Source: Flavihumibacter cheonanensis (GTDB lineage Bacteria; Bacteroidota; Bacteroidia; Chitinophagales; Chitinophagaceae). From it: 64,000 nucleotides of DNA. The DNA lies in NCBI RefSeq assembly GCF_022352215.1, contig NZ_JAKRWF010000003.1:165854-229853 (forward strand), written 5' to 3'. The position numbers and the translations under genes are program-made. Below the pieces are notes generated by a model. It had not been told where the DNA came from, ran no database searches, and saw only the letters and a list, made by a program, of their open reading frames with translations. This document shows positions 25,776 to 63,328 of this stretch, one piece after another (within the stretch, counting starts at the first letter, position 1; every line of letters starts with the position of its first letter).

Positions 25776-28013
25776 TCAGCTTAATTCTGCATCGAAACGA
25801 TCCACACTGTGAATACCACTCAGTGCTTTCAGGCGGGCAACCAACTCATCTAGTTCTTCCTTATCATGAACGAATACTTTGATAGCACCTCTGAAGATAC
25901 CTTCTTTCGCTTCAATGGACAGCGCACTGATATTGATTTTCATTTCACCCGAAATCAGGTTCGTGATTTTGTTTACAACCCCCACATCATCAAGGCCAAT
26001 GATATTGAGTCCGGTCAGGAAAGAAATCTCTTTATTTTTTGCCCATTTTGTTTTCACTACTCTATGACCATAATTCGCAAGTAGCTTGGATGCATTTGGA
26101 CAATTGGTACGATGAATAGTAAGTCCTTTTCCGGTGGTTACAAAACCAAATACATCATCACCCGGAATCGGCTTGCAGCAATTTGCCAGATTGTACATAA
26201 TCTTATCACTGCTTTCCCCGAAGATGATCAGTTCTGTATCTTTTTTGGAGAAATCACTGATGGTGGGATGCTCATTTTTTTCTTCTACCGGTTTTACTGG
26301 TTTGGGCGCTTCCAGTTTATCACCCAGCACATTGAATTCTGATAATTCTTTCAAATCGATCCCACGGGTAGCCACCTGGTAGAAAAAATCGAGCAGTGAA
26401 GGTTGCTTGTAAAACTCTGCTAGTATCTCCGTATTGTGGGTGGAGAAACCGGCTCCCATTCCTTCCAACTTCCGTTGTACAATGTATTTACCATCCTCTG
26501 CAATTTTCCTTTTCTCTTCCTTCAGGGCATCCTTGATCTTGGTTTTAGCTTTGGCAGTTACTACAAAGTTGAGCCAATCTTCCGAAGGCTTCTGTTTATT
26601 GGAAGTAATGATCTCGATCTGATCACCGCTTCTGAGTTTATGACTAAGCGGAACCAGTTTATGATTTACTTTGGCACCAATACAACGGGCACCCACAGCC
26701 GAATGTATGGAGAAGGCGAAATCAAGCGCTGTTGAGCCTACAGGCAGCATTTTCACATCACCTTTGGGCGTATACACATAAATCTCTTCTGCCAGAAAAC
26801 TGGTTTTGAAATCCTGTAAAAAATCGACAGAATCGTTATCGGGTGTTTGCAGCACTTCGCGGATCTGGTGAAACCATTTATCAAAACGGCTTTCATCTGC
26901 TGCCCCCTCCTTGTATTTCCAATGCGCGGCCAGTCCTTTCTCAGCGATCTCGTTCATGCGTTTCGTACGAATCTGTACTTCCACCCATTTTCCCTGCGGC
27001 CCCATCACAGTGGTATGGAGGGCTTCATAGCCATTGCTTTTGGGATTGCTGAGCCAGTCGCGAAGCCGCTCGGGTGATGGGGTGTATTCATCGGTGATCA
27101 TGGAGTACACTTTCCAGCAATCTTCTTTCTCCCGTTCTGTGGGTGAATCCAGAATAACTCGTATCGCAAAGAGATCATATACTTCCTCGAAGCTGACTCC
27201 TTTTTTCTTCATCTTATTCCAGATACTATGAATACTTTTAGGGCGGCCGTGAATTTCAAAATTGAAGCCGCTTTTTTCCATATTCTCCCGAAGCGGACGG
27301 ATGAATTCATTGATATAACGGGTGCGTTCTCTTTTAGTTTCTGCCAGTTTACGGGCTATCTCTTTGTACACATCGGGTTCCATGTATTTCATGGCAAGGT
27401 CTTCCATCTCCGTTTTAATGGTATAGAGCCCCATTCGATGTGCAAGCGGTGAATAAACGTAAACCGTTTCCGAAGCGATTTTGAGTTGTTTTTCCCGCTT
27501 CATGCTCTCAAGGGTGCGCATGTTGTGCAGGCGATCGGATAATTTGATTAGAATTACACGGGGATCATCGGTAAGCGTAAGCAGGATTTTTTTAAAATTT
27601 TCTGCCTGCTGAGAAGCGTTCACATCAATTACATTGGCGATTTTGGTTAGGCCATCTACAATACGGGCGATCTCGGACCCAAATTGCCGTTCAATATCAT
27701 CAAGAGTGATATCAGTATCTTCAACCGTATCATGCAAGAGGGAACAAATGGTAGAACGGACTCCCAGTCCTATTTCTTCCACGCAGATCCTCGCTACTGC
27801 AAGGGGGTGCAGGATATAGGGTTCCCCGCTTTTGCGACGCATGGTTTTATGTGCATCGGCAGCCATCTCAAAAGCTATGCGAACCAGTTCCTTATCGCCG
27901 GGTTTGAGTTTTGGTTTAAGGCATCGGAGCAAAGCCCGGTATTCCCTCAAGATCAACTTCTTTTCCTGCTCTTCAGTAAGATTATATTTCGGTATCACCG
28001 CTACTGTTTCCAT
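25776..28013 (-). CDS. relA: Bifunctional (p)ppGpp synthetase/hydrolase, RelA/SpoT homologue
   Basis: It is 745 aa with HD hydrolase, synthetase, TGS and ACT regions in order. Confidence 0.9.
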   Translation of the reverse strand: METVAVIPKYNLTEEQEKKLILREYRALLRCLKPKLKPGDKELVRIAFEMAADAHKTMRRKSGEPYILHPLAVARICVEEIGLGVRSTICSLLHDTVEDTDITLDDIERQFGSEIARIVDGLTKIANVIDVNASQQAENFKKILLTLTDDPRVILIKLSDRLHNMRTLESMKREKQLKIASETVYVYSPLAHRMGLYTIKTEMEDLAMKYMEPDVYKEIARKLAETKRERTRYINEFIRPLRENMEKSGFNFEIHGRPKSIHSIWNKMKKKGVSFEEVYDLFAIRVILDSPTEREKEDCWKVYSMITDEYTPSPERLRDWLSNPKSNGYEALHTTVMGPQGKWVEVQIRTKRMNEIAEKGLAAHWKYKEGAADESRFDKWFHQIREVLQTPDNDSVDFLQDFKTSFLAEEIYVYTPKGDVKMLPVGSTALDFAFSIHSAVGARCIGAKVNHKLVPLSHKLRSGDQIEIITSNKQKPSEDWLNFVVTAKAKTKIKDALKEEKRKIAEDGKYIVQRKLEGMGAGFSTHNTEILAEFYKQPSLLDFFYQVATRGIDLKELSEFNVLGDKLEAPKPVKPVEEKNEHPTISDFSKKDTELIIFGESSDKIMYNLANCCKPIPGDDVFGFVTTGKGLTIHRTNCPNASKLLANYGHRVVKTKWAKNKEISFLTGLNIIGLDDVGVVNKITNLISGEMKINISALSIEAKEGIFRGAIKVFVHDKEELDELVARLKALSGIHSVDRFDAELS

Positions 28014-28117
28014 ACATTACTTGCTCCTTATCAATATAATAAACAGTACGAATTTAAAGAAAAGAAGGATGTTTTCTTTTATTGGTGAAAACCACTACAT
28101 TTGCAGCCCCTGAGGGG

Positions 28118-28201
28118 ACGTGAGACGTGAGACGTGAGACGTGAGACGTGAGACGTGAGACGTGAGACGTGAGACGTGAGACGTGAGACGTGAGACGTGA
28201 G
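28118..28201. repeat. Perfect tandem microsatellite (ACGTGAG)x12, 4 nt upstream of tRNA-Leu
   Basis: There are 84 nt of exact 7-nt periodicity. The SHVSRLT-repeat ORF on the minus strand is a translation artefact of this array. Confidence 0.95.
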
Positions 28202-28205
28202 AGAA

Positions 28206-28287
28206 GCGGGCGTGGCGAAACTGGCAGACGCACCAGACTTAGGATCTGGCGCCGCGAGGCATGTAGGTTCGACTCCTATCGCCCGCA
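28206..28287 (+). tRNA. tRNA-Leu (anticodon UAG), class II with a long variable arm
   Basis: I folded the cloverleaf by hand. The acceptor stem is GCGGGCG/CGCCCGC. The anticodon stem is CCAGA/TCTGG with loop CTTAGGA. The T-arm is GTAGG-TTCGACT-CCTAT. CCA is not encoded. Confidence 0.85.
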
Positions 28288-28295
28288 CAAACGAA

Positions 28296-28326
28296 GCGAT
28301 CGTTCAATGAACGATCGCTTTTTTTA
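28296..28326 (+). terminator. Rho-independent terminator after tRNA-Leu
   Basis: A perfect 10-bp stem GCGATCGTTC/GAACGATCGC with a 3-nt loop is followed by T7. Confidence 0.7.
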
Positions 28327-29001
28327 TATCAGATGCTGGTATACGGCTACCAGTTTCCAAAAGCCGGTTTCAGGGCCAGGTTTCACCGGCAATTTCCGTA
28401 GCTCATTCAGCACGAATAAAAGCTGTTCATCCTGCCATTCAAAATTCCCAAGGATAAGTTCCTGATCAGTCAGAAAAAGTCCCTTTTTCCCAATACAGAG
28501 ATGGAAATTTTCTTCTGAAACTGCTTCAAAAACCAGTACATCCCTTGGTTGATACCCTGAAAATGAACTATGATGTACCATAGTTGATTGATACGAAACC
28601 GCCAGCAGGGAGTGATAATTAAGTTCCGGCAGTGTCAGTTTGGGGAAAATGTCCAGCTCTGTAAACTTTATTTCGCGGTAGGAAGCTTTTAAAAAGATCG
28701 TTTCGCTAAGAAAAGGAACCTGTCTTAGTTGCATTTGAAGGAGCCGCTGTTCTTCTTCCAGCAGTTTATCGCCATTGAATTGCAGTATTTCGTTGATAGT
28801 CAGGGTTCGGGTAATAAAGGCCTCAAGAGGTATGCAAAAATAATTGGCAATACGAAGTGCAGTTTCAAGTCGGGGTTCCGCCCTGTTCTCTTCATAGGAA
28901 GAGATATTTCCCCGGGTGAGTTCAAATAATTCGGCAAATGCCAATTGGCTTAGCCCTTTGGCTGTTCTAATTTTTTTAATATTGGCGCCGATCCTCGTCA
29001 T
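28324..29001 (-). CDS. XRE-family (Cro/C1-type HTH) transcriptional regulator with an uncharacterised C-terminal domain
   Basis: The N-terminal IKKIRTAKGLSQLAFAELFELTRGNISSYE matches the HTH_XRE pattern. It is divergent from the PspA/flotillin gene set. Confidence 0.7.
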   Translation of the reverse strand: MTRIGANIKKIRTAKGLSQLAFAELFELTRGNISSYEENRAEPRLETALRIANYFCIPLEAFITRTLTINEILQFNGDKLLEEEQRLLQMQLRQVPFLSETIFLKASYREIKFTELDIFPKLTLPELNYHSLLAVSYQSTMVHHSSFSGYQPRDVLVFEAVSEENFHLCIGKKGLFLTDQELILGNFEWQDEQLLFVLNELRKLPVKPGPETGFWKLVAVYQHLI

Positions 29002-40278: not shown

Positions 40279-40282
40279 GAGG

Positions 40283-40360
40283 TGAGACGTGAGATGTGAG
40301 ACGTGAAAAGTGAAAGGTGAAAGAAGGGTGAAAAGTGAGACGTGAAATGTGAGAAGGGTG
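40283..40360. repeat. Degenerate heptamer array of the GTGARAN family (GTGAGAC, GTGAGAT, GTGAAAA, GTGAAAG and others, about 11 units), related to the perfect array at 28118
   Basis: The plus strand is purine-rich with 7-nt periodicity and lies in the intergenic region after tig. Confidence 0.85.
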
Positions 40361-40383: not shown

Positions 40384-40413
40384 ATATAATAGACCGTGTG
40401 GTTGCCCCACACG
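40384..40413 (+). terminator. Rho-independent terminator for tig
   Basis: The stem is CCGTGTGG/CCACACGG with loop TTGC followed by a T-run. Confidence 0.65.
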
Positions 40414-40439
40414 GTTTTTCTTTTCCCAGCCAGAGCGGT

Positions 40440-40500
40440 ATTTGGGGTTTCCCTTCTTCCATTCCTCCATCTTCCATTCCCCCCTCTTCCCTACCCCCTC
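40440..40500. repeat. Pyrimidine-only tract. On the minus strand it is a GGA-rich purine repeat that shares GGAATGGAAGATGGA with the locus at 62469.
   Basis: It is about 60 nt of almost pure C/T on the plus strand. An exact 15-mer is shared with 62473-62490 in the opposite orientation. Confidence 0.8.
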
Positions 40501-40609
40501 TTCCATACCTTTTTGTCAGCCCGACTGCCGTTTTTTGCAATGATTTTCAATTGGAAAGGTATTTGCACCAGTCCATTGCCTTATTTTTATCAAAACAACG
40601 AGGATTATT

Positions 40610-43472: not shown

Positions 43473-43554
43473 TTCCAATATGTCAATTATTTGTTACAAT
43501 ATGTAAAATATTATTTACATTGAGTAAAATATTCTTTACATTAGATCAAATTAG
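43473..43554. promoter_or_regulatory. Four tandem operator-like repeats at 21-bp periodicity (TTACAATATGTAAAATATT, TTACATTGAGTAAAATATT, TTACATTAGATCAAATTAG and a degenerate upstream copy). Each contains a TTACA-N3-TGTAA palindrome.
   Basis: I aligned these repeats by eye. They lie immediately upstream of the membrane-protein and HTH gene pair. Confidence 0.5.
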
Positions 43555-43559
43555 TTATT

Positions 43560-44036
43560 ATGAAACAGCAACCCTTACTTCCCTATCGATTTAAAAAGAT
43601 TGGCTGGCTGCTCTTTATACCTTTTGCCTTTGCGGGCATTTACCTGCATATCACGGATTATGAACCAAATTGGATCACCACCAAAGTTTTTGCCATTTAT
43701 AACGATAGTTTGCTTTCAGATAAGAAATGGTTTTCCATTGTTGAAACGAATATCACCAGCACTTTAATCGGGATCGGATTTTTAATGGGCTGTTTATTAA
43801 TTGCATTTTCCCGAGAGAAAGTCGAAGATGAGTTTATAGCAGGATTAAGGCTGTCTTCGCTGCAATGGGCGGTACTGGTCAATTATTCGTTGCTGCTTTT
43901 CTGTTTTTTATTCATTTACGGATTTGCATTCCTGAATGTGCTCATCTACAATGTATTCACCGTCTTGCTTATTTTTATTGGTCGCTTTAATTACCTCCTG
44001 TTCAAATCCAGAAAAATGAATGCAGATGAAAAATAA
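43560..44036 (+). CDS. Small multi-pass membrane protein (DUF2975-like), partner of the downstream XRE HTH
   Basis: It has four predicted TM helices. It overlaps the start of a short HTH gene, a recurrent membrane-protein plus YozG-like-HTH pairing. Confidence 0.5.
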   Translation: MKQQPLLPYRFKKIGWLLFIPFAFAGIYLHITDYEPNWITTKVFAIYNDSLLSDKKWFSIVETNITSTLIGIGFLMGCLLIAFSREKVEDEFIAGLRLSSLQWAVLVNYSLLLFCFLFIYGFAFLNVLIYNVFTVLLIFIGRFNYLLFKSRKMNADEK

Positions 44037-44229: not shown

Positions 44230-44262
44230 TTCTCACGTCTGACGTTTCACTTCTCACCACCT
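44230..44262. repeat. Four GTGARAC-family heptamers in reverse orientation (the reverse complement reads GTGAGAA GTGAAAC GTCAGAC GTGAGAA), between convergent genes
   Basis: This is the same heptamer family as the arrays at 28118 and 40283. Confidence 0.7.
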
Positions 44263-62468: not shown

Positions 62469-62520
62469 CGGAGGAATGGAAGATGGAAACAAGGGAGACG
62501 GGAGGCAGGAGACGGGCCGC
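62469..62520. repeat. GGA-rich purine tract (GGAGGAATGGAAGATGGAAACAAGGGAGACGGGAGGCAGGAGACGGG) followed by a partially complementary pyrimidine tract
   Basis: It shares an exact GGAATGGAAGATGGA with the minus strand of 40440-40500. Confidence 0.8.
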
Positions 62521-62617: not shown

Positions 62618-63328
62618 ATGATCATGGAAGAAAAGAAAGCAAGAATACTATTGTGTGAAGACGATCAGAATCTCGGACTGGTGTTGAAGAATTACCTGGA
62701 ATTGAATGATTTTGATGTGGTGTTGGAACGCGATGGCCGACTAGGTCTCGCAGCCTTTCAGCGTGAAAAATTTGATCTCTGCCTGCTGGACGTAATGATG
62801 CCAAATATGGATGGCTTCAGTTTGGCAGAAGAGATCCGCGATATCGACCCCGATGTGCCCCTGTTTTTCCTAAGTGCCAAAACCATGAAGGAAGATATTA
62901 TCCAGGGTTACAAACTGGGTGCGGATGATTATATCACCAAGCCCTTCGACAGTGAAGTGCTGTTGTTAAAGATTAAAGCTATCCTCAAGCGCAATGAGGA
63001 ACTGAACAAGGAACAGGAAAACAAGGAATTTGACCTTGGCAGTTTCCATTTCAACCCAAAATTGAGAGAGCTTACGCACAGCGGACAAACACAAACCTTG
63101 TCGCCCAAGGAGAATGAATTACTGAAAATGCTTTGTGAGCACATGAATGACCTCTTGCCACGTGAGCAGGCTCTTAAAAAAATCTGGGGTAGTGATACCT
63201 ACTTCAATGGCCGGAGTATGGATGTATACATCGCTAAACTAAGGAAGTACCTGAAAGAGGATTCCAGCATTGAAATCGTCAACATTCACGGCAATGGATT
63301 CCGCCTGGTAGTACCAACTCCTGCTTAA
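62618..63328 (+). CDS. OmpR-family response regulator (REC plus winged-helix DNA-binding domain)
   Basis: The start is taken at MIMEEKKARILLCEDD. The upstream part of ORF 62057 overlaps the GroES-like gene on the opposite strand. It has the receiver motifs and a C-terminal wHTH (RSMDVYIAKLRKYL). Confidence 0.85.
   Translation: MIMEEKKARILLCEDDQNLGLVLKNYLELNDFDVVLERDGRLGLAAFQREKFDLCLLDVMMPNMDGFSLAEEIRDIDPDVPLFFLSAKTMKEDIIQGYKLGADDYITKPFDSEVLLLKIKAILKRNEELNKEQENKEFDLGSFHFNPKLRELTHSGQTQTLSPKENELLKMLCEHMNDLLPREQALKKIWGSDTYFNGRSMDVYIAKLRKYLKEDSSIEIVNIHGNGFRLVVPTPA

Follow-up and report, generated by a model that had tools for sequence, protein, structure and literature searches.

A heptamer array between the relA/spoT and tRNA-Leu(UAG) genes

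The stretch of Flavihumibacter cheonanensis DNA (Chitinophagaceae, Bacteroidota) that we analysed (64,000 nt, hereafter the window) encodes flanking proteins that are on record for this species under accessions of two different NCBI assemblies. It contains a relA/spoT-family gene and a tRNA-Leu(UAG) gene in divergent orientation, with a heptanucleotide tandem repeat in the spacer between them (Table 1). Reading the sequence directly, we found 12 exact ACGTGAG units with zero mismatches. TRF delimited the array as 28117-28202, with period 7, 12.3 copies, 100% matches, 0 indels, and a score of 172, the highest of the whole window. An earlier note on this DNA had described flawless 7-nt periodicity over 12 copies, ending 4 nt before tRNA-Leu(UAG); both points were borne out, with AGAA as the gap. 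A two-unit probe (up to 2 mismatches) matched 19 times in the window, compared to 0.20 matches expected from shuffles.

With short head-to-tail units of high purity, the array is a simple-sequence repeat (SSR) or VNTR. A CRISPR array was ruled out, as the 7-nt units are contiguous and lack spacers, whereas CRISPR repeats measure 24-48 nt and are separated by unique spacers. Coding potential was also dismissed. Reading frames stay open on the reverse strand (LTSHVSR repeats) for purely mechanical reasons, and they overlap the tRNA. Read as GTGAGAC, the unit contains no GG and thus lacks the G-tract of G-quadruplex heptamer repeats. The earlier note had remarked on an ACGT core in each unit and on CACGTG-like half-sites between adjacent units; the ACGT palindrome is indeed present in every unit, but CACGTG is never formed, the junction reading GACGTG.

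Table 1. Coordinates and strands of features in the window.
Feature	Position	Strand	Remarks
relA/spoT-family (p)ppGpp synthetase/hydrolase gene	25776..28013	-	Divergent neighbour, upstream
TAAATTCG (minus-strand reading)	28049..28056	-	Conserved -7-like box of divergent relA/spoT
TACATTTG	28096..28103	+	Bacteroidota sigma-A type -7 box (TAnnTTTG) of the tRNA-Leu gene; motif match and orthologue conservation
GC-rich block and hairpin	28104..28117	+	CAGCCCC (28104-28110), hairpin CCCC-TGA-GGGG (28107-28117); CAnCCC conserved
(ACGTGAG)12 perfect heptanucleotide tandem repeat (VNTR)	28118..28201	+	Probably transcribed, as most of the pre-tRNA 5' leader
AGAA	28202..28205	+	Last four leader nt before the presumed RNase P cleavage site
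tRNA-Leu(UAG) gene	28206..28288	+	ARAGORN (anticodon TAG); Rfam tRNA, 55.2 bits
Intrinsic terminator	28293..28328	+	13-bp stem (28293-28321), then T run
Degenerate GTGAGAC/GTGAAAA heptamer array	40282..40356	+	4 nt after the trigger-factor (tig) stop codon
Four degenerate GTGAGAC-type units	44231..44257	-	Between convergent XRE-type HTH and acyl-CoA dehydrogenase genes

The tRNA-Leu(UAG) gene is a monocistronic unit closed by an intrinsic terminator, since the terminator lies 3' of the tRNA and the gene that follows it, encoding an XRE-family HTH protein, is on the minus strand. An Rfam search returned no match besides the tRNA, the sequence of which is identical across all Flavihumibacter loci over the stretch compared.

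Promoters of Bacteroidota carry a -7 box, TAnnTTTG, which replaces the -10/-35 hexamers (PMC7366714). Such a box, cTAcaTTTGCAgCCC, was found 14 nt upstream of the array, and a motif scan of the window detected no TAnnTTTG between the array and the tRNA. A sigma-70 scan returned nothing at this site, as expected for Bacteroidota. Because TAnnTTTG is not enriched window-wide (35 observed versus 51 expected), our promoter call rests on conservation among orthologues. The comparison set consisted of 80 metagenomic loci (L124-L203), taken from an environmental metagenome collection, that encode RelA homologues with 80-85% identity. The divergent relA and tRNA-Leu(UAG) arrangement is kept in 57 loci, the window counted among them, and the box cTAcaTTTGCAnCCC is present in 57/57, in the context AAATnnCCTACnTTTGCAnCCC throughout.

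Across the 57 loci, 10 to 293 nt separate the end of this box from the tRNA 5' end (10-24 nt in 14 loci, 25-60 nt in 10, and over 60 nt in 33). The distance is 102 nt in the window and 16-18 nt when the array is subtracted, which corresponds to the minimal class. The conserved box is upstream of the array in 57/57 loci, and in 14 it stands as close as 10-24 nt to the tRNA, which argues that transcription runs through the array. The putative start lies at approximately 28105-28112, inside the GC-rich block that directly follows the box and is kept in all orthologues, and the whole array would be transcribed within a pre-tRNA 5' leader of about 100 nt. During tRNA maturation, RNase P removes the 5' leader, and presumably the array with it.

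The hairpin at 28107-28117 appears in the MFE fold. In F. fluminis its GC stem is kept while the loop changes from TGA to TTC (CCCC-TTC-GGGG). This comparison, which involved loci L204 and L207, hints at a conserved 5'-terminal stem-loop of the leader. We also observed that the CAGCCCC block resembles the discriminator of stringently controlled stable-RNA promoters and that the divergent neighbour, relA/spoT, is the gene of a (p)ppGpp enzyme.

The relA/spoT box, ACGAATTTAC, is likewise conserved and lies 21-50 nt from the tRNA box in most loci. The two boxes stand back-to-back on one side of the array, which is outside both core promoters. As these conserved -7 boxes lie upstream of the array, the possibility that it forms a promoter or promoter spacer was rejected; with the -7 box and GC-rich block immediately upstream in 57 loci, copy number cannot alter the spacing of promoter elements. 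The earlier note had placed the array where the tRNA promoter or leader should be; of these, the leader position agrees with our data, while the promoter does not.

Copy-number variation and related arrays in Flavihumibacter

At the orthologous site in Flavihumibacter genomes, we found a series of 4, 5, 8, 10, 11, 12, and approximately 15 units, as read from assemblies, of which short-read ones can misjudge arrays of about 100 nt. The allele of approximately 15 units, from the F. cheonanensis assembly GCA_054783375.1, contains an N, so that at least one assembler was unsure of it. This array measures 104 nt, compared to 84 nt in the window, with 14 intact units and one 6-nt unit that holds the N, and it is the sole difference from the window, with 0 mismatches over 8.2 kb of flank. 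A JGI contig of 4.79 Mb (99.6% identity to the window, with 6 mismatches and 1 gap in 3.2 kb) has 11 units, and another JGI contig, which ends inside the array, has at least 10 (99.8% identity). Ten units were present in F. fluminis RY-1 (91% identity), eight in GCA_006365155.1 (86%), five degenerate units in a third JGI contig (89-92%), and four in an ENA contig (90-95%). Purity follows length, with long alleles perfect and short alleles degenerate.

In total, ten independent records from four sources show the array at this position: four NCBI assemblies, three JGI contigs (including the 4.79-Mb one), one ENA contig, and two Logan k-mer contigs that break off within it. All have it in the same register between the same flanks. 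Differences of whole units between conserved flanks (86% to 100% identity) are those of a VNTR, and the array has been retained across at least 14% flank divergence. We also searched metagenomes for contigs of the same species that might reveal heterogeneity within a population; none were found, the best relatives in the scan having 80-85% RelA identity. Judging from these alleles, the array is a true VNTR that is probably driven by slippage, and the pattern of pure long and degenerate short alleles would correspond to the usual SSR life cycle.

These comparisons bear on several proposals of the earlier note. Its suggestion of recent slipped-strand change gained support from the whole-unit differences among close relatives, and the comparison of strains that it proposed revealed variable copy number, from 4 to approximately 15 units. 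It had also named an outcome that would speak against its reading, namely an invariant array with the promoter upstream and the repeat simply part of a processed leader. The promoter does appear to lie upstream, with the repeat in the leader, yet the array is not invariant.

Related units occur elsewhere in the window. The array at 40282-40356 has 2 units fewer in close relatives. The units at 44231-44257 fill a 17-nt gap and overlap the acyl-CoA dehydrogenase stop codon, while close relatives have seven units in a 38-nt gap. These 2- and 3-unit differences were found in strains that are approximately 99.6-99.8% identical in the relA-tRNA region; both arrays are identical between the two F. 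cheonanensis assemblies. The units at these two sites are GTGAGAC, GTGAAAA, and GTGAGAA, and GGGAGAC-like units occur at 62493-62516. The presence of several intergenic loci with a related 7-nt unit within 64 kb is typical of long SSRs (LSSRs), and by its unit the array belongs to a repeat family rather than to the tRNA.

Other repeats were noted in the same regions. Purine-rich heptamers resembling GGGAGAC and GGAAGAT extend over 62480-62516, which is non-coding and upstream of a probable start codon near 62625. In the spacer between the trigger-factor gene and clpP, a terminator-like hairpin at approximately 40393-40420 is followed by a C/T-rich array of period 7/15 at 40450-40510 (TCCCTCTTCCATACC), and both arrays of this spacer have unit-sized indels in close relatives (L302 and L303). 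At 43476-43542, a 21-nt AT-rich unit (CAATATGTAAAATATTAGTTA) is repeated about three times directly in front of ORF 43560-44036, itself followed by a gene for a small XRE HTH protein; these copies look like operator or iteron-type sites.

Heptamer arrays in relatives and across genomes

We scanned 621 kb of related Chitinophagaceae sequence, chosen without regard to repeats, for tandem repeats. Periods 7 and 14 accounted for 57 of the 230 arrays, compared to none at period 7 in a shuffled control, and heptamers are thus over-represented among the tandem repeats of this lineage, a further trait of the LSSR class. The five top-scoring repeats were heptamers without exception, each with its own unit, and every one was located in the relA/tRNA-Leu spacer: a perfect (GTTCGGA)12.6 that starts 10 nt after the same promoter box (L127), (TAGGCTT)13 (L145), (CGTTAAG) in approximately 10 copies (L183), (GAGGTTG)17.6 (L185), and the (ACGTGAG)12 of the window. 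Eleven leaders of tRNA-Leu(UAG) contained repeats of period 7 or 14. The leader of this tRNA is therefore a recurrent site of heptamer expansion at which the unit sequence is not conserved. At least four lineages independently carry long heptamer arrays here, for which a mutational hot spot and selection favouring long or repetitive leaders are equally easy explanations.

The earlier note had suggested a binding-site array for a factor recognising GTGAGAC. Sites of a transcription factor or iterons would share a motif at orthologous positions, but the leaders of relatives have no array or carry unrelated heptamers at the same place. The unit is also not enriched over composition-matched controls in viral contigs, and other arrays of it are not beside tRNAs (1/130), which further argues against such a factor.

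Two additional features of these loci were observed. A heptamer array is often followed, after a short spacer, by an inverted array of the same unit, giving long imperfect hairpins (leaders L187, L172, L181, L130, L186, and L191); the same inverted-pair pattern occurs at L006, L049, L075, L080, L089, L098, and L117 and is known from the GGGAATC repeats of Xanthomonas. The long leaders of L129, L135, L137, L142, L156, and L173 hold partial copies of the tRNA-Leu 5' half (gcgggcgtggcgaaa...ggatctgg), which suggests, from their sequence, past integration or rearrangement at this tRNA.

A scan of 185,579 reference genomes for (GTGAGAC)3 returned at least 120 stretches, spanning Bacteroidota, Gemmatimonadota, Acidimicrobiia, Chloroflexota, Gammaproteobacteria, and other phyla. 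Among the matches listed, there were often several per genome and often inverted pairs; copies had a median of 4 and a maximum of 20, so that the 12.3 of the window are among the longest. Control heptamers were counted in the viral collection only, while the stretches above come from reference genomes. In the viral contigs, GTGAGAC occurred in 2 stretches, compared to 25, 45, 6, and 13 for four composition-matched heptamers. Because these controls outnumber the target, we rejected the notion of a special cross-phylum motif; the counts suggest that almost any heptamer recurs as arrays far above chance, in line with the published dominance of heptanucleotide units among long SSRs of bacteria (Mrazek 2007, as summarised in PMC4679880 and PMC4692102). 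The earlier note had also proposed a search for such arrays next to tRNAs, and only 1/130 other (GTGAGAC)n arrays was located within 300 nt of one.

We also considered an orientation rule, in which the G-rich, stop-containing strand would be the sense strand and the antisense strand would be C-rich and rut-like, pointing to Rho avoidance. A sense ORF ends at the 5' edge in 74/131 (GTGAGAC)n arrays, and the convergent contexts are split 34 versus 8, but the TGA that the unit contains in every frame confounds this sense-strand bias. Unbiased sets revealed no bias (11 versus 14, and 22 versus 19 for non-target arrays), and the rule was dropped. Separately, single viral contigs were seen to carry many (GTGAGCA)n arrays, on both strands and at separate intergenic sites (L258, L255, L246, and L269, all from the 44-kb IMGVR_UViG_3300039307_000285; L281; L239), followed by the related heptamers GTAAAGG and CAAAAGC. 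Genome-specific heptamer families thus occur on viral-classified contigs too.

Possible effects of the array and its known counterparts

Taken together, the array is probably a hypervariable heptanucleotide VNTR that expanded in the pre-tRNA-Leu(UAG) leader and is neutral or nearly so. Transcription would start a few nucleotides downstream of the TAcaTTTG -7 box and run through the array and the tRNA to the intrinsic terminator. RNase P would then cut away the whole leader, leaving the same mature tRNA at any copy number. Strand slippage would add and drop units, possibly aided by heavy transcription and by mini-hairpins that the ACGT cores of neighbouring units may form; such ACGT-NNN-ACGT hairpins are predicted for both DNA strands (z = -3.2 and -4.7). 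The array may be tolerated here since nothing is encoded in the leader, which also falls outside both core promoters and would be discarded. The array would be one member of a widespread class of intergenic heptamer SSRs, and no unit-specific function seems to be needed, as unrelated heptamers occupy the same leader elsewhere and control heptamers are as common or commoner. In silico folding of the precursor gave a predicted acceptor-stem pairing probability of 0.97-0.98 for 0-20 units, with at most 0.09 bp of pairing between leader and tRNA. By this prediction, the array most likely has little effect on the tRNA.

In the opposing interpretation, the number of transcribed units would set how much tRNA-Leu(UAG) is made, an effect of copy number that the earlier note had raised for this CUA decoder. 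Leader RNA structure, pausing, or premature termination could mediate it, as could the rate at which RNase P or other RNases process the leader, and slippage would give heritable, reversible variation in the supply of a tRNA that reads a rare codon. The copy-number polymorphism is real, the array lies within the likely transcribed leader, CUA makes up 4.4% of Leu codons in the window ORFs, and this leader has become longer several times in other lineages. The array RNA is predicted to self-fold through its ACGU cores into a rod whose length would scale with copy number, and a transcribed heptamer SSR with post-transcriptional control is known from the 5'-UTR of H. influenzae hmw1A (PMC12721329). 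However, the predicted tRNA fold is unaffected by copy number, and the self-pairing consists only of 4-bp ACGU helices with 3x3 loops, with no long complementary arm that could provide the long dsRNA hairpin of an hmw-like RNase III substrate. Many relatives manage with a leader of 10-24 nt, and the gene is a housekeeping tRNA rather than a contingency-type surface or restriction-modification gene. We therefore consider tuning of the tRNA unlikely. A stronger form, in which the leader beside relA/spoT is a selected 'evolvability' site and slippage acts as a heritable rheostat on the CUA decoder, making this a phase-variable tRNA, appears improbable. Several Chitinophagaceae lineages would then have independently recruited heptamer arrays, with an effect on leader folding, elongation, or processing rate.

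Other roles would not be tied to this tRNA. GUGAGAC arrays in leaders and 3' UTRs might bind an RNA-binding protein or sRNA, or the excised leader might serve as a sponge that ties the tRNA transcript into a broader network of post-transcriptional control. Related arrays do occur in several transcribed non-coding regions of the same genome, (GTGAGAC)n elsewhere often abuts a same-strand upstream stop codon (median 4-12 nt) and forms inverted pairs, and post-transcriptional roles were proposed for TAACTGA repeats (PMC4679880). Such a shared RNA function is quite improbable, since units differ between lineages at the same site, arrays degenerate and vary freely in length, control heptamers are equally common, the unbiased data provide no general strand rule, and the proximity to stop codons is partly forced by the unit itself. 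The divergent promoter region and the palindrome in each unit could instead point to regulation at the DNA level, through transcription factor sites or a spacer that sets promoter geometry for tRNA-Leu or relA/spoT. We give this a very slim chance, as both -7 boxes are on one side and no promoter elements are separated by the array, orthologues lack the motif or have unrelated units, copy number drifts from 4 to approximately 15, and CACGTG is absent. An assembly or sequencing artefact might be suspected from the N in one assembly, the different lengths in the two assemblies of the species, and the Logan contigs that end in the array, but the agreement of ten independent records in site, register, and flanks leaves it almost no credibility.

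The array differs from contingency loci, where the SSR lies between promoter elements or within an ORF and controls genes for surface, virulence, or restriction-modification functions in host-adapted organisms. It is downstream of the -7 box and outside genes, a change of one 7-nt unit within an RNA leader causes no frameshift, its neighbours are tRNA-Leu and relA/spoT, and the relatives stem from environmental metagenomes. It corresponds to an intergenic heptanucleotide SSR of a known class in an unusual place. Heptamers are the most abundant class of long SSRs in many bacteria (Mrazek 2007, as summarised in PMC4679880 and PMC4692102). Long SSRs as described by Mrazek, Guo and Shah 2007 share with the array, according to those summaries, 7-nt units in perfect intergenic arrays longer than chance, at several loci per genome and with units particular to the genome; array length varies between close relatives, and slippage has been proposed as the origin. 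The GTGAGAC/ACGTGAG unit, a Chitinophagaceae host, and a location in a tRNA leader were not found for them in the literature searched, which covers that work in summary. More broadly, our literature search found neither this unit nor a Chitinophagaceae host of such repeats, and no SSR described in a bacterial tRNA 5' leader.

The GGGAATC repeats of Xanthomonas and the GGGGA(C/T)T repeats of Nostoc (cyanobacterial STRR; Rehm et al. 2015, PMC4692102) are also intergenic heptamers without clear function. Their arrays vary extensively in length and sequence among closely related genomes at corresponding gene pairs, and inverted pairs of them occur where genes converge (PMC4692102). Unlike GTGAGAC, their units contain G3-4 tracts and form G-quadruplexes (PMC4692102), and the taxa differ. 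TAACTGA repeats of marine Beggiatoaceae, Cyanobacteria, and some Bacteroidetes (MacGregor 2015, PMC4679880) are sense-strand heptamers in transcribed 5' regions, with a patchy cross-phylum spread; certain Bacteroidetes have long arrays of them, and contigs stop within the repeats (PMC4679880). They lie just upstream of protein start codons, mostly as 2-6 copies of a single specific unit (PMC4679880), whereas here a tRNA is downstream and the unit is different. Our control counts suggest that cross-phylum recurrence is to be expected for almost any heptamer.

The (ATCTTTC)n repeats of H. influenzae hmw1A/hmw2A similarly form a heptamer SSR of polymorphic copy number between promoter and gene, in the leader (PMC12721329). 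In hmw1A, 5'-UTR structure and RNase III set expression, and repeat change requires transcription (PMC12721329). In those loci, however, a G-rich arm pairs with the repeats, RNase III acts on the resulting structure, and expression of the surface adhesin drops as repeats rise (PMC12721329); the tRNA-Leu array has no complementary C-rich arm, and its product is a tRNA whose leader is presumably removed anyway. The (AGAT)n of Moraxella catarrhalis uspA2, as summarised in PMC4679880, is another SSR of strain-dependent copy number in a transcribed 5' untranslated region, but it is a tetranucleotide upstream of a surface protein gene in a host-adapted pathogen, with a demonstrated optimum copy number.

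Of all these findings, only the repeated colonisation of one tRNA leader by different heptamers is mildly surprising. By analogy, the hmw result may explain why heptamers would expand preferentially in a strongly transcribed tRNA leader, and the site fits the recent finding that transcription promotes change in heptamer repeats (PMC12721329). If neutral, the array would serve as a high-resolution VNTR typing marker for Flavihumibacter strains and as a warning that assemblies disagree and break at this site. It would also provide a clean natural example of a location that tolerates a heptamer SSR, a heavily transcribed RNA leader that is discarded. Should copy number change tRNA output after all, the gene would be the first tRNA gene under SSR control within the literature searched. 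The independent expansions of different heptamers in Chitinophagaceae bear on why 7-nt units dominate the long SSRs of bacteria.
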